From the NCBI RefSeq assembly GCF_057098645.1, contig NZ_CM169472.1: a DNA stretch of 64,000 nt, one strand, 5' to 3'. Shown here piece by piece: positions 4,421 to 35,086 of this stretch (the first letter of the stretch is position 1; every line of letters begins with the position of its first letter). The translations under genes were made by a program, and so were the position numbers. The notes beneath the pieces are model-generated. The model was not told the DNA's origin, did no database searches, and worked only from the letters and a program-made list of their open reading frames with translations.

Positions 4421-5167
4421 TCAGAATTTGTAGGTGATCCCGGTAGAAATCAGGCCAGTCCAGGATTTATCCACCATCGGGCTGTCAGTAACTTCATCAG
4501 ACAGACGGGTGTAGCGCGCGGTACCGTAAACACTCCAGTCGCCGAGGAAGTTGTAGCTGGCGCTCAGCTCCAGGTAAGGGCTCCAGCTGTCGTTCGGGTT
4601 ATAGCCACGCAGACCGCTGCGAGCGGACTCTTTGCGCGATACGCCATAATAGTATTCGTTCTGGTTTTCGCTGTTCCACTGCACACCAATACCCGGAGTC
4701 ACGGTCAGGCCACCGTTGGTGTAACGATACAACCAGGCCATATCCCAGACGATGCCGTTGCTGTTATCCAGGGTATCGCCAGCCAGGGTGGTACGCAGGT
4801 AACCGTACTGGGTAAAGTGAGCATAAGACAGACCAGCCATCATGGTGCTCTTACGGTCATCCAGGTGACGCATTTGGTGATCGCCACTGTCTTTAGCTTT
4901 GAAGTAAAGCGGCGACCAGTAAGCGGTAATTGAAAGTTTATCCGTTGCGTCATTCCACAGGTAGTAACCACCACCTAAGCCACGGAACCAGAAGTTATCG
5001 CCTTCATAGTTGATTACCGGTACTGGGTAAACATCGGTATCGTAATCTTTATATGGGTGTTCAACGACACCTACGCCTGCGCCCAGGGAAAATTTACCTT
5101 CAGCGTGCGCTACGCCTGCAGACGTTGCGATAAGCACTCCAAGTGCCAGAAGTTTGAGTTTGGTCAC
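4421..5167 (-). CDS. mipA: MltA-interacting outer-membrane protein MipA
   Basis: 248-aa ORF with signal peptide and beta-barrel-like sequence; recognised as MipA. Confidence 0.9.
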   Translation of the reverse strand: MTKLKLLALGVLIATSAGVAHAEGKFSLGAGVGVVEHPYKDYDTDVYPVPVINYEGDNFWFRGLGGGYYLWNDATDKLSITAYWSPLYFKAKDSGDHQMRHLDDRKSTMMAGLSYAHFTQYGYLRTTLAGDTLDNSNGIVWDMAWLYRYTNGGLTVTPGIGVQWNSENQNEYYYGVSRKESARSGLRGYNPNDSWSPYLELSASYNFLGDWSVYGTARYTRLSDEVTDSPMVDKSWTGLISTGITYKF

Positions 5168-5483
5168 AATTAATCATTCCTTAAACAAATGTTTAGCGGG
5201 CGACAAAGTTTACCCGTCAATACATCGAAACCCAACCTTTTTACGTTTTCATTTTTTAAAGTAACTGTTTAATTTTCCTGACGCGGATGACACCGCGCTT
5301 ACAGCCAAATGAATTTAGCGTTACTGGCGAGCCTGGTCTTTACATTAATTATGCAAAATTTATGGATGAGTTGTTGATATGCCATTGAAATTAAGAAAGC
5401 CGTGTAGGCAAGTTTTCCATTTGCCATCTACGCTTAATTTTGAAGGTGTATCACCGGGCACGTTGTTCTCATCGTCGATAAAA

Positions 5484-5499
5484 TGGCATGAGAGTTGCT
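5484..5499 (+). promoter_or_regulatory. Candidate sigma-54 promoter (-24 TGGCAT / -12 TTGCT) upstream of yeaG
   Basis: TGGCATgagagTTGCT about 105 nt upstream of the yeaG ATG; matches the GG-N10-GC spacing. Confidence 0.4.
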
Positions 5500-5602
5500 G
5501 TGTTTTAGCAAGAGACGTCGTTCAGTTTACCTCTTCCGGGAGCCTCTACTATTCATATGAACGGCTCTTAACCTGTGCTAAAAAACGAAAGGACGGCATA
5601 CC

Positions 5603-32286: not shown

Positions 32287-32631
32287 ATGACTATCGTTCG
32301 TATCGATGCTGAAGCCCGCTGGTCTGATGTAGTAATCCACAACAACACGCTCTACTACACTGGTGTACCGGAAAACCTCGACGCCGATGCCTTTGAGCAA
32401 ACCGCCAACACGCTGGCGCAGATTGACGCCGTGCTGGAAAAACAGGGCAGCAATAAATCGAGCATTCTGGATGCCACCATTTTCCTGGCCGATAAAAACG
32501 ACTTCGCGGCGATGAATAAAGCGTGGGATGCCTGGGTTGTCGCGGGTCATGCGCCGGTGCGCTGCACGGTACAAGCGGGTTTGATGAACCCGAAGTATAA
32601 AGTTGAAATTAAGATTGTGGCTGCGGTGTAA
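32287..32631 (+). CDS. yoaB: RidA/YjgF-family protein YoaB
   Basis: Start at MTIVRIDAEA gives 114 aa; tandem ATG at 32284 is an alternative; GAGGA upstream. Confidence 0.8.
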   Translation: MTIVRIDAEARWSDVVIHNNTLYYTGVPENLDADAFEQTANTLAQIDAVLEKQGSNKSSILDATIFLADKNDFAAMNKAWDAWVVAGHAPVRCTVQAGLMNPKYKVEIKIVAAV

Positions 32632-33052
32632 GCTTTATCGAAGCAAAATAAGTCAGACGATAATTTATCGATAATACTGGTCGGTTTTACATAAATCGAC
32701 CAGAGAATAAGATATTACTGTTGATGCTTCTGCTAATTCATTATTTATTTTTATAATTTCAATTTTATCTATAAAACTAACTATATAAATAAACATAACC
32801 ATGCCGTTGTGTTCGCCCTTTGATTAGCAACTCTGGTTTTCTTTCTTAGCTGAACAATCTGGTTATAGCGTGCGGACTGACCGTTAATTTTCTCCATCTT
32901 ACTGGATAACACACCATGAGCTGCTACCTTTAAAACACCTGAATGTCAACAGGTTAACTCGTGCCATATCGTTATAATCCCTTTGATATTAGATGCAAAT
33001 TAAGGTCATATATAGCCTTATCGATAACATGGTTAATTTTAAGGATAAGAAT

Positions 33053-33352
33053 ATGCCTGCTGTAATAGATAAAGCCCTGGATTTCATTGGTGCCATGGAT
33101 GTATCAGCGCCAACACCAAGTTCGATGAATGAAAGCACGGCGAAGGGAATCTTTAAATATTTAAAAGAACTGGGAGTACCCGCGAGTGCCGCTGATATTA
33201 CGGCGCGAGCTGACCAGGAAGGCTGGAACCCTGGGTTCACGGAAAAAATGGTTGGATGGGCAAAAAAAATGGAGACAGGTGAACGCTCTGTGATTAAAAA
33301 TCCTGAGTACTTTTCAACATATATGCAGGAAGAACTAAAAGCACTGGTCTGA
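33053..33352 (+). CDS. yoaC: DUF1889 protein YoaC
   Basis: Start ATG 33053 (MPAVIDKALD) after AAGGA gives 99 aa. Confidence 0.8.
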   Translation: MPAVIDKALDFIGAMDVSAPTPSSMNESTAKGIFKYLKELGVPASAADITARADQEGWNPGFTEKMVGWAKKMETGERSVIKNPEYFSTYMQEELKALV

Positions 33353-33471
33353 GTTAAATTTATATCAGCATAAATGGGTCAGGACGCTTTTAATCACATA
33401 TAAAAAGCGTCCTTTTTCTCACAATCAAATAATCATCGGCTTCTATAACGAAATCGATACGGATTAGTGTG

Positions 33472-33651
33472 TTACTCGTCTTCATCCTCAAAACGCGCCA
33501 CGATTCGCTCGCCGGAGTGGTTGGCACGCAGCTCTTCTGCCACCAGCGCGATTGCCTGGCCGCTGCTCATCCCTTGTGCCATCAGTTCCTGGATCCGCTC
33601 GACAGCTTTTTGCTGCTGTTCATGGGTGAGTGAAGGTAAACCTGCAAACAT
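33472..33651 (-). CDS. yoaH: UPF0181 protein YoaH (59 aa)
   Basis: Hand translation of the minus strand gives [59 protein letters not shown]; the ORF track lists only the antisense ORF here. Confidence 0.8.
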
Positions 33652-33724
33652 TGTTAACTCCTGCTAAATTGTTGGCGCTAATTATTTCATGCTACCCGGC
33701 ACATAGCCAGTAGAGTCAGGACTG

Positions 33725-35086
33725 ATGAAGACGTTATCTCCCGCTGTGATTACTTTACCCTGGCGTCAGGACGCCGCTGAATTTTATTTCTCCCGCTTAA
33801 GCCACCTGCCGTGGGCGATGCTTTTACACTCCGGCTATGCCGATCATCCGTATAGCCGCTTTGATATTGTGGTCGCCGAGCCGATTTGCACTTTAACCAC
33901 TTTCGGTAAAGAAACCGTTGTTAGTGAAAGCGAAAAACGCACAACGACCACTGATGACCCGCTACAGGTGCTCCAGCAGGTGCTGGATCGCGCAGACATT
34001 CGCCCAACGCATAACGAAGATTTGCCATTTCAGGGCGGCGCACTGGGGTTGTTTGGCTACGATCTGGGCCGCCGTTTTGAGTCACTGCCAGAAATTGCGG
34101 AACAAGATATCGTTCTGCCGGATATGGCAGTGGGTATCTACGATTGGGCGCTCATTGTCGACCACCAGCGTCATACAGTTTCTTTGCTGAGTCATAATGA
34201 TGTCAATGCCCGTCGGGCCTGGCTTGAAAGCCAGCAATTCTCGCCGCAGGAAGATTTCACGCTCACTTCCGACTGGCAATCCAATATGACCCGCGAGCAG
34301 TACGGCGAAAAATTTCGCCAAGTACAGGAATATCTGCACAGCGGTGATTGCTATCAGGTGAATCTCGCCCAGCGTTTTCATGCGACCTATTCTGGCGATG
34401 AATGGCAGGCATTCCTTCAGCTTAATCAGGCCAACCGCGCGCCATTTAGCGCTTTTTTACGTCTTGAACAGGGTGCAATTTTAAGCCTTTCGCCAGAGCG
34501 GTTTATTCTTTGTGATAATAGTGAAATCCAGACCCGCCCGATTAAAGGCACGCTACCACGCCTGCCCGATCCTCAGGAGGATAGCAAACAAGCAGAAAAA
34601 CTGGCGAACTCAGCGAAAGATCGTGCCGAAAATCTGATGATTGTCGATTTAATGCGTAATGATATCGGTCGTGTTGCCGTAGCAGGTTCGGTAAAAGTAC
34701 CAGAGCTGTTCGTGGTGGAACCCTTCCCTGCCGTGCATCATCTGGTCAGCACCATAACGGCGCGACTACCAGAACAGTTACACGCCAGCGATCTGCTGCG
34801 CGCAGCTTTTCCTGGTGGCTCAATAACCGGGGCTCCGAAAGTACGGGCTATGGAAATTATCGACGAACTGGAACCGCAGCGACGTAATGCCTGGTGCGGC
34901 AGCATTGGCTATTTGAGCTTTTGCGGCAACATGGATACCAGCATTACTATCCGCACGCTGACTGCCATTAACGGACAAATATACTGCTCTGCGGGCGGTG
35001 GAATTGTCGCCGATAGCCAGGAAGAAGCGGAATATCAGGAAACTTTTGATAAAGTTAATAAGATATTACGCCAACTGGAGAAGTAA
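33725..35086 (+). CDS. pabB: Aminodeoxychorismate synthase component I PabB
   Basis: 453-aa chorismate-binding-family ORF. Confidence 0.9.
   Translation: MKTLSPAVITLPWRQDAAEFYFSRLSHLPWAMLLHSGYADHPYSRFDIVVAEPICTLTTFGKETVVSESEKRTTTTDDPLQVLQQVLDRADIRPTHNEDLPFQGGALGLFGYDLGRRFESLPEIAEQDIVLPDMAVGIYDWALIVDHQRHTVSLLSHNDVNARRAWLESQQFSPQEDFTLTSDWQSNMTREQYGEKFRQVQEYLHSGDCYQVNLAQRFHATYSGDEWQAFLQLNQANRAPFSAFLRLEQGAILSLSPERFILCDNSEIQTRPIKGTLPRLPDPQEDSKQAEKLANSAKDRAENLMIVDLMRNDIGRVAVAGSVKVPELFVVEPFPAVHHLVSTITARLPEQLHASDLLRAAFPGGSITGAPKVRAMEIIDELEPQRRNAWCGSIGYLSFCGNMDTSITIRTLTAINGQIYCSAGGGIVADSQEEAEYQETFDKVNKILRQLEK

Follow-up and report, generated by a model that had tools for sequence, protein, structure and literature searches.

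Position and annotation of the yoaB-yoaC spacer

We analyzed the spacer between yoaB and yoaC in a 64-kb stretch of E. coli DNA, referred to here as the window. The surrounding genes are yoaA (30245-32155, minus strand), yoaB (32287-32631, plus strand), yoaC (33053-33352, plus strand), yoaH (33472-33651, minus strand), and pabB (33725-35086, plus strand). A spacer of 421 bp (32632-33052) separates the last base of the yoaB stop codon (32631) from the yoaC ATG (33053). Its GC content is 32.8%; yoaB has 52%, yoaC 45%, and the window as a whole 49.7%. A first-pass annotation of the window had described this AT-rich gap, and we confirmed it at these positions. The same annotation ranked the gap as the largest apart from the one at cspC. 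This ranking is incorrect; in the first 50 kb of the window, which we checked, the mipA-yeaG gap (5167-5601) is larger at 435 bp.

The spacer is a stable part of the E. coli genome. It was found in 5,411 of 5,426 complete E. coli genomes, mostly at 95-100% identity. The gap had been described as having no assigned function, and we found no annotated feature beneath it among the matches listed from these 5,411 genomes. Nothing is annotated in the corresponding interval of K-12 MG1655 either (K-12 1893712-1894132; K-12 coordinates equal window coordinates plus 1,861,080). The experimental data discussed below come from K-12, which is a different strain from that of the window; the two do not differ in the hairpin or promoter sequences.

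We examined the coding potential of the spacer. It contains six ORFs of 20-45 aa. Consistent with the earlier statement that no ORF has a ribosome-binding site, we found only a weak AAGG preceding two minus-strand ORFs (22-23 aa). Of these, we checked the start codons of three ORFs (22, 23, and 45 aa), which are not kept in other Escherichia, and the two longest ORFs (45 and 43 aa, both on the minus strand) have no Pfam match. A 34-aa plus-strand ORF that overlies the promoter region was also rejected. Its frame shifts between species, and in E. fergusonii it is fused to yoaC; conservation across this stretch is therefore at the nucleotide level.

The gene downstream of the spacer codes for a 99-aa DUF1889 protein (Pfam PF08986, E 4.8e-48) with PDB homologues 2ES9 and 2JN8. 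The YoaC family is tiny, with 33 representative clusters among 1.84 billion proteins. Deleting yoaC drops the boric-acid MIC from 100 to 40-45 mM. The gene is expressed, as seen from a published Term-seq 3' end at K-12 1894498 (+) (PMC7815308).

An insertion between yoaB and yoaH in Escherichia

The spacer is one part of a larger block of low-GC DNA. The convergent genes yoaB and yoaH have stop codons that flank 840 bp at 37.4% GC (32632-33471), and this interval contains the spacer, yoaC, a terminator, and a gene remnant. The first-pass annotation had suggested checking conservation across enterobacteria. We scanned for YoaB using one genome per species and recovered 80 enterobacterial loci, 75 of them outside Escherichia. 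The yoaB and yoaH stops are no more than 18 nt apart in 58 of these 75 loci, a group that includes Citrobacter, Salmonella, Klebsiella, Enterobacter, Raoultella, Leclercia, Lelliottia, Trabulsiella, and Yokenella. In Klebsiella the two stops abut directly (TAATTA). None of the 75 loci from other genera carries yoaC at this junction. All seven Escherichia lineages that we examined (E. coli, E. albertii, E. whittamii, E. fergusonii, and three more) contain the insert with yoaC and the spacer, and this arrangement is limited to Escherichia among the loci examined. The junction carries other cargo in Phytobacter, Kosakonia, and Kluyvera.

We propose that about 840 bp of low-GC DNA landed exactly between the abutting yoaB and yoaH stops and would have brought yoaC with it. 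Judging from its distribution, the insertion was apparently gained early in the genus Escherichia. The entire spacer belongs to an insertion found here only in Escherichia, a point that the first-pass annotation missed. No terminal inverted repeats or target duplication were seen at the ends of the insert when the junctions were read. We also considered a mobile-element origin and rejected it: yoaC has no match in the phage collection, and the hairpin is single-copy. The few matches to yoaC in the plasmid collection are chromosome-sized or very large non-mobilizable records.

The right end of the insertion is closed by a second hairpin, AGGACGCTTTT...AAAAGCGTCCT (33381-33413; -21.7 kcal/mol, z -4.2), which is a 3'-end structure common to yoaC on the plus strand and yoaH on the minus strand. 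Term-seq ends (PMC7815308) flank it on both sides, at K-12 1894498 (+) and 1894457 (-), or window 33418 and 33377. Beyond this hairpin, at approximately 33425-33467 on the minus strand, lies the remnant of a pentapeptide-repeat gene. It retains the first ~12 codons with a mutated start codon and translates as LIRIDFVIE... in E. coli. The gene is intact in Escherichia sp. E1V33, where it codes for 150 aa (L004 4175-4627, minus strand; Pfam PF00805, E 2.5e-20).

Homologues of yoaC occur at unrelated loci in other genera. The gene follows a peptide MFS transporter in Kluyvera and K. pneumoniae and a TonB-dependent receptor in Atlantibacter. It lies next to yqjH and mug-rpoD in C. amalonaticus, near mug-rpoD in Cedecea, and near fis in Buttiauxella.

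A conserved hairpin marks the 3' end of yoaB mRNA

The left part of the spacer contains a stem-loop, CTGGTCGGTTT-TACAT-AAATCGACCAG (32677-32703, plus strand), that begins 46 nt past the yoaB stop codon. The first-pass annotation had noted a perfect 7-bp hairpin, CTGGTCG-13 nt-CGACCAG, at 32680-32706. The structure is real, and we place it 3 nt farther left and find a longer stem of 11 pairs, including one G.U on the plus strand, around a 5-nt loop. With flanking sequence included (61 nt), the plus-strand RNA has a folding energy of -17.6 kcal/mol (z = -5.1), a stability that none of 200 shuffled sequences reached. On the minus strand a C.A mismatch takes the place of the G.U pair, which makes the RNA less stable (-12.7 kcal/mol, z = -2.7).

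Pairing in the stem has been maintained as its sequence changed. The stem is 56-78% identical across the seven Escherichia lineages, and 95% of stem cells in these lineages are paired, compared with 13-41% in slid controls. Compensatory double changes are found at 3 of 9 stem pairs among these seven related sequences. For example, CTGGTCG/CGACCAG is replaced by CTGACCG/CGGTCAG or CTGGCCG/CGGCCAG. Four divergent E. coli strains that we sampled differ in the loop and the flanking sequence, and the stem is unchanged and paired in all of them. A 71-nt region containing the hairpin is present in one copy per genome in 5,418 E. coli genomes, which rules out identity with REP/BIME or ERIC-type repeats.

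Published transcriptome data, another check that had been suggested, place the 3' end of yoaB mRNA in the spacer. Term-seq in K-12 (Adams et al. 2021, PMC7815308, Supplementary file 1) reports an RNA 3' end at 1893787 (+), classed as 'orphan', that recurs in each of three growth conditions (scores 6,545, 1,585, and 1,225). This position corresponds to window 32707, 4 nt past the stem. In SMRT-Cappable-seq (Yan et al. 2018, PMC6131387), a full-length transcript spans 1893335-1893785, covers no gene other than b1809 (yoaB), and carries the label 'novelTTS'. The start at 1893335 is also present in a separate, independent list of start sites (Romero et al. 2014, PMC4681348) once its U00096.2 coordinates are converted. 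The hairpin therefore marks an experimentally mapped yoaB transcript end, 2-4 nt past the stem, and the yoaB 3' UTR spans 76 nt (32632-32707, plus strand). This role had escaped the first-pass annotation.

A Rho signal lies farther downstream. The same Term-seq study (PMC7815308) reports a region of Rho termination with a peak at K-12 1894019 (+), scored at 3.15 (p 2.4e-6) over 800-nt windows that also take in yoaC. The peak corresponds to window 32939, ~230 nt downstream of the hairpin. Between 32704 and 32970, C outnumbers G (54 to 37; GC skew about -0.15), and the RNA is untranslated and contains no conserved ORF. The stretch thus has the excess of C over G and the lack of translation expected for Rho. 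The Rho score could instead reflect activation of the yoaC promoter by bicyclomycin rather than read-through from yoaB.

We infer that most yoaB transcripts pass the hairpin and would be released by Rho within the untranslated, C-over-G spacer. The released RNA would then be trimmed by 3' exonucleases back to the hairpin, which would protect the message. This model is based on the absence of a U-tract and on the Rho signal ~230 nt downstream. The main alternative is that the E. coli hairpin is a sufficient Rho-independent terminator at which polymerase stops with no trimming. An end 2-4 nt after a stem does not by itself separate trimming from weak intrinsic termination, and two methods place RNA 3' ends right after this stem. 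The version in Escherichia sp. E1V33 also argues for intrinsic termination. Its inverted repeat is extended to CTAAAACACTGGCCG...CGGCCAGTGTTTTAG with the tail GUGUUUUAG, and this is the layout of a textbook bidirectional intrinsic terminator. The E. coli stem, however, is followed by AGAAUAAGAUAUU, which has no U-tract, and a terminator scan of the E. coli spacer returned 0 sites. Its RNA ends fall only 2-4 nt past the stem, where 7-9 nt is usual, and the bicyclomycin-sensitive signal lies downstream within the same spacer. The E. coli hairpin fails the canonical definition of an intrinsic terminator on two of these counts, the missing U-tract and the short distance. We regard intrinsic termination at this site as possible but doubtful, and we favor release by Rho followed by trimming.

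From these alignments, the E. coli hairpin looks like a derivative of an E1V33-type terminator that lost its U-tract. Where sister species retain a GUGUUUU tail, this hairpin probably acts as a genuine intrinsic terminator.

The middle of the spacer is variable and AT-rich

The sequence between the hairpin and the yoaC control region (about 32708-32914) is AT-rich, untranslated, and poorly conserved. The published Rho peak at 32939 falls just past this stretch. Identity among Escherichia species is 50-67% over about 32704-32914. E. fergusonii, Escherichia sp. MOD1-EC7003, and E. coli strain wlxctx60 carry a short allele in which about 105 bp of unrelated, GC-normal sequence replaces the middle. 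In E. coli D72 an IS1 element lies just past the hairpin, and the remaining spacer and the 5' end of yoaC are gone, an IS1-associated deletion.

The high-affinity nucleation motif for H-NS, TCGATAAATT (cited in bioRxiv 10.1101/738146), is matched perfectly at 32662-32671 on the minus strand. This match lies just before the hairpin and is the sole perfect copy in the 64-kb window. The insertion also resembles H-NS targets in one respect, being lineage-restricted (to Escherichia among the loci examined) with 33-37% GC compared with 50% for the window. The low GC content and the perfect motif make H-NS binding to the spacer plausible. Silencing of yoaC would be incomplete, since the gene is expressed and its loss has a phenotype.

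The middle is probably filler that serves as an H-NS substrate and a Rho loading zone. We propose that this plastic, AT-rich DNA has no sequence-specific function. It would provide a zone for Rho loading and termination, and a substrate for H-NS, that together insulate yoaC from yoaB read-through.

The yoaC control region

Conservation rises again in the last ~138 bp of the spacer (32915-33052, plus strand), which we interpret from conservation and ChIP-exo as a control region that holds one or more promoters, a presumed YeiE site, and the yoaC 5' UTR. It is 87-91% identical to the sequences of four long-allele Escherichia lineages. The yoaC coding sequence is 84-88% identical in the same comparison, so the control region is conserved as well as the gene or better. 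The suggestion that the spacer could hold the yoaC promoter is borne out here by two candidate elements, a TATAAT and a TTGAWA-N18-CATAGT-like pair.

The first candidate, Pa, is a perfect -10 TATAAT (32973-32978, plus strand) identified from the sequence and alignments, with a predicted start near 32985. It is conserved in Escherichia only and has no usable -35. The second candidate, Pb (32983-33012, plus strand), combines a -35 TTGATA (32983-32988), an 18-nt spacer, and a -10 CATATA (33007-33012), with a predicted start near 33019. Its hexamers fall within the 16-18 bp spacing criterion for sigma-70. A TTGAWA-N18-CATAGT/CATATG pair is also found upstream of yoaC homologues elsewhere, in Kluyvera, K. 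pneumoniae, and three metagenome lineages. The recurrence of this pair with yoaC homologues at other loci in other genera suggests that Pb is older than Pa. No yoaC transcription start was found in the Cappable-seq, SMRT-Cappable-seq, and Romero et al. tables that we searched.

Regulator binding had also been raised for the spacer, and YeiE is the leading candidate. In Gao et al. 2018 (NAR 46:10682, PMC6237786, Fig. 3B), ChIP-exo places YeiE upstream of RNA polymerase at the yoaC locus, and yoaC is described as activated. A TATAAT without a -35 fits activation by a LysR-type protein such as YeiE bound upstream of RNA polymerase. We also considered a divergent promoter. There is a perfect TTGACA on the minus strand (32949-32944), but it has no acceptable -10, and no reverse-strand start is listed.

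Between the promoter candidates and the start codon lies an A/U-rich leader (33020-33052, plus strand) that is near-invariant in a cross-genus alignment and contains the Shine-Dalgarno sequence TAAGGA (33040-33045). The pattern RTGGTTAATTTTAAGGAYAAGAnTATG is kept across most of the genera compared. We retrieved 18 metagenome loci with a pattern built from part of the leader. These loci were chosen on the leader and are not independent evidence for its conservation; they test the upstream boxes only.

We found no sign that the leader acts through RNA structure. Over 15 lineages, alifold returned no consensus structure (-0.03 kcal/mol), and shuffled sequences fold as well as the E. coli leader does (z-scores -0.7 and +0.86). 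Term-seq shows no premature 3' end in the yoaC 5' UTR (PMC7815308). With no consensus structure and no premature end, we rejected a riboswitch, thermometer, or attenuator. A conserved hairpin or operator at 33001-33020 was suggested by E. coli, Kluyvera, and Buttiauxella, but it is not kept in two further metagenome lineages, and alifold was empty. The conserved boxes are better read as promoter -35 and -10 elements with a fixed 18-nt spacing. We read the region as a promoter followed by an unstructured, A/U-rich translation-initiation region.

Other readings of the spacer

We weighed three further explanations for the spacer, of which an unannotated sRNA had been raised in the first-pass annotation. 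Such an RNA could be made from its own promoter in the middle or could derive from the yoaB 3' UTR and end at the hairpin. In its favor, the hairpin is stable and conserved, the RNA 3' end there is abundant (a Term-seq score of 6,545 under one condition), and the AT-rich part contains two sigma-70-like hexamer pairs. However, this is the sole RNA 3' end, and it belongs to the full-length yoaB mRNA that starts at 1893335. The start-site list of Romero et al. 2014 (PMC4681348) shows no start inside the spacer on either strand. Promoter-like pairs are not more common than expected (2, compared with 3.4 +/- 1.8 in shuffled sequences), there is no U-tail for Hfq binding, and the stretch between the hairpin and the promoter is unconserved. 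An Rfam scan of 31500-34500 at E <= 10 gave chance matches only (best E = 1.8). A table derived from Hfq RIL-seq contains no yoaB-yoaC intergenic or UTR node; its only nodes here are the yoaB and yoaC coding sequences, with sRNA scores near 0.001. We consider an independent sRNA very unlikely. Another reading treats the palindromes, meaning the hairpin and two copies of TTATCGATAA, as operator DNA to which a dimeric regulator of yoaC or yoaB would bind. TTATCGATAA does occur twice in 64 kb, with both copies in the spacer and 0.11 expected, and the hairpin arms hold TGGT...ACCA. Neither TTATCGATAA copy, however, is kept in the other Escherichia species, and some E. coli strains have TTATCGACAA in place of the left one. 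The hairpin arms vary yet stay complementary (TGGTCG to TGACCG or TGGCCG), which is the pattern of an RNA stem and not of a protein site, and the hairpin lies downstream of yoaB and 350 bp from the yoaC start codon. This is the reading in which we place the least credence. We treat the TTATCGATAA copies as chance occurrences in AT-rich DNA, apart from their overlap with the H-NS motif.

The remaining reading is that the middle is a decayed gene or a mobile-element remnant rather than mere filler. The insertion has lost other cargo, as the reduction of the pentapeptide-repeat gene from its intact E1V33 form to ~12 codons in E. coli illustrates, and unrelated sequence has replaced the middle in E. 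fergusonii. Weighing against decay, the two longest minus-strand ORFs lack Pfam matches, the spacer is single-copy in E. coli genomes, and the ends of the insert showed neither terminal inverted repeats nor target duplication. We judge a decayed remnant unlikely and retain the view that the middle is probably filler open to Rho and H-NS.

Overall model and comparison with known systems

We hold with good confidence that the spacer is the non-coding 5' part of a small, yoaC-bearing Escherichia insertion and that it is divided into three zones: the yoaB-end hairpin on the left, a middle that would serve Rho and H-NS, and the yoaC promoter and leader on the right. The components are all ordinary: an mRNA-end hairpin, Rho-sensitive acquired DNA, and a sigma-70 promoter that depends on an activator and is followed by a strong ribosome-binding leader. 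In the best-studied bacterial genome, these 421 bp without annotation can now be mapped as a yoaB 3' UTR, a zone where Rho and probably H-NS would insulate, and a yoaC promoter and leader. The analysis adds an evolutionary frame, in that the spacer lies within an 840-bp Escherichia insertion and the promoter and leader accompany yoaC at other loci. A gene of unassigned function, whose loss causes boric-acid sensitivity, reached Escherichia as a tiny insertion between abutting convergent genes. These results are of use for annotation and for the design of yoaC and yoaB reporter constructs and deletions, and they imply no new mechanism.

A more speculative possibility is that yoaC moves between enterobacterial loci as a cassette made of the promoter, the 33-nt leader, the gene, and end hairpins that re-terminate the host genes on either side, and that the leader or the yoaB 3' UTR might bind a trans-acting sRNA or a ProQ-like regulator. 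If this were true, the leader or the hairpin-capped 76-nt yoaB 3' UTR would be more than a ribosome-binding site or a passive RNA end. We think this improbable and prefer the three-zone insertion described above.

We compared each zone with known systems. Intrinsic terminators and the exonuclease-blocking hairpins that remain after Rho-dependent termination form the comparison class for the left zone. The yoaB hairpin resembles such 3'-end stem-loops, which terminate or protect mRNAs, in being a stable, GC-containing stem-loop with a mapped RNA end just beyond it. Compensatory changes keep its pairing, and sister species have flanking A- and T-tracts. It differs in that it is not ancestral to yoaB and sits in inserted DNA.

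The middle resembles Rho- and H-NS-controlled AT-rich acquired DNA in E. coli. It belongs to a low-GC, lineage-restricted insertion, and it offers an untranslated stretch with more C than G, a bicyclomycin-sensitive termination signal, and a perfect TCGATAAATT motif. In contrast to those regions, the yoaC insertion is very small (840 bp and one gene), and it is an H-NS candidate on the basis of its sequence.

The right zone is similar to sigma-70 promoters that depend on LysR-type activators. Pa has a perfect -10 and no usable -35, and an activator peak lies upstream of polymerase in the ChIP-exo figure cited above. At yoaC, however, a second and probably older promoter-like pair (Pb) overlaps, and the YeiE site is presumed.

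The insertion as a whole is reminiscent of orphan-gene islets between convergent genes. It shares with them a precise junction between two stop codons, a taxonomically restricted cargo gene (DUF1889), and a junction that holds different cargo in Phytobacter, Kosakonia, and Kluyvera. Unlike those islets, the yoaC insertion has no noted integrase, tRNA target, direct repeats, or mobile-element ends, and yoaC brings its own promoter and leader, with a hairpin on each side.

Gene content and remnants of the yoaB-yoaH insertion

The DNA inserted between yoaB and yoaH probably carried two convergent genes originally, as judged from gene content across Escherichia. An intact gene for a 150-amino-acid pentapeptide-repeat protein occupies the interval between the yoaC terminator and yoaH in Escherichia sp. 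E1V33 (locus L004, 4175-4627, minus strand), and E. whittamii has homologous DNA of comparable length in the same interval. In E. coli, the gene is reduced to approximately its first 12 codons (window ~33425-33467, minus strand), and the start codon of this remnant is mutated. Together, the intact gene, the homologous DNA, and the remnant support this reconstruction.

In the window, yoaC is intact (33053-33352, 300 nt). It is annotated as frameshifted (299 nt) in strain O145 RM9872 (NZ_CP028379.1), whose spacer is 100% identical to that of the window. In strain D72 (L112, 3081-3845), IS1A lies directly after the yoaB hairpin. D72 lacks the remaining spacer together with the 5' portion of yoaC, and thus yoaC and its control region are dispensable in this strain.

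Transcript ends and starts

The 3' end of the yoaH mRNA, at window 33377 (minus strand), has a very high Term-seq score of 94,187 (PMC7815308). This end lies ~4-5 nt past the hairpin at 33381-33413, which has no U-tract on the minus strand, and an antisense Rho region is called inside yoaC at K-12 position 1894397 (minus strand). The yoaH end mirrors the situation at the end of yoaB.

Romero et al. 2014 (PMC4681348) reported a class II plus-strand start within the 3' end of yoaC at window 33308 (K-12 1894388), 110 nt upstream of the Term-seq 3' end at 1894498 (window 33418). These positions could delimit a short 3'-derived yoaC RNA (33308-33418, plus strand), a low-confidence candidate because we saw no obvious -10 element for this start.

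At 435 bp, the mipA-yeaG intergenic gap (window 5167-5601) slightly exceeds the gap between yoaB and yoaC. Within it, the H-NS motif occurs twice with one mismatch each, at 5357 and 5475.

Comparison with other genomes

The yoaA-yoaB-yoaC-yoaH region constitutes an insertion hotspot for small segments of DNA. In E. fergusonii (L083), the yoaA-yoaB interval contains additional small genes, including one for a DUF4177 protein, and the yoaC-yoaH interval contains two ORFs, of 257 amino acids (no Pfam match) and 40 amino acids; these extras lie at L083 1811-2232 and 3546-4445. The yoaB/yoaH junction of other genera holds different cargo from that of Escherichia. Inserts of ~1.1 kb occur at L044, L051, L071, and L082; Phytobacter carries a minus-strand 350-amino-acid ORF, and the cargo in Kluyvera (L031-L034, L036, and L039) is a larger cluster that includes ABC-transporter-like ORFs.

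In genera other than Escherichia, several of the DUF1889 genes lie close to genes related to iron (neighborhoods L084, L086, and L088), namely a yqjH-like gene of the siderophore-interacting type and a gene for a TonB-dependent receptor. Gao et al. 2018 (PMC6237786) connected YeiE, the reported activator of yoaC, with iron homeostasis. These neighbors and the YeiE connection may provide a hint to yoaC function.
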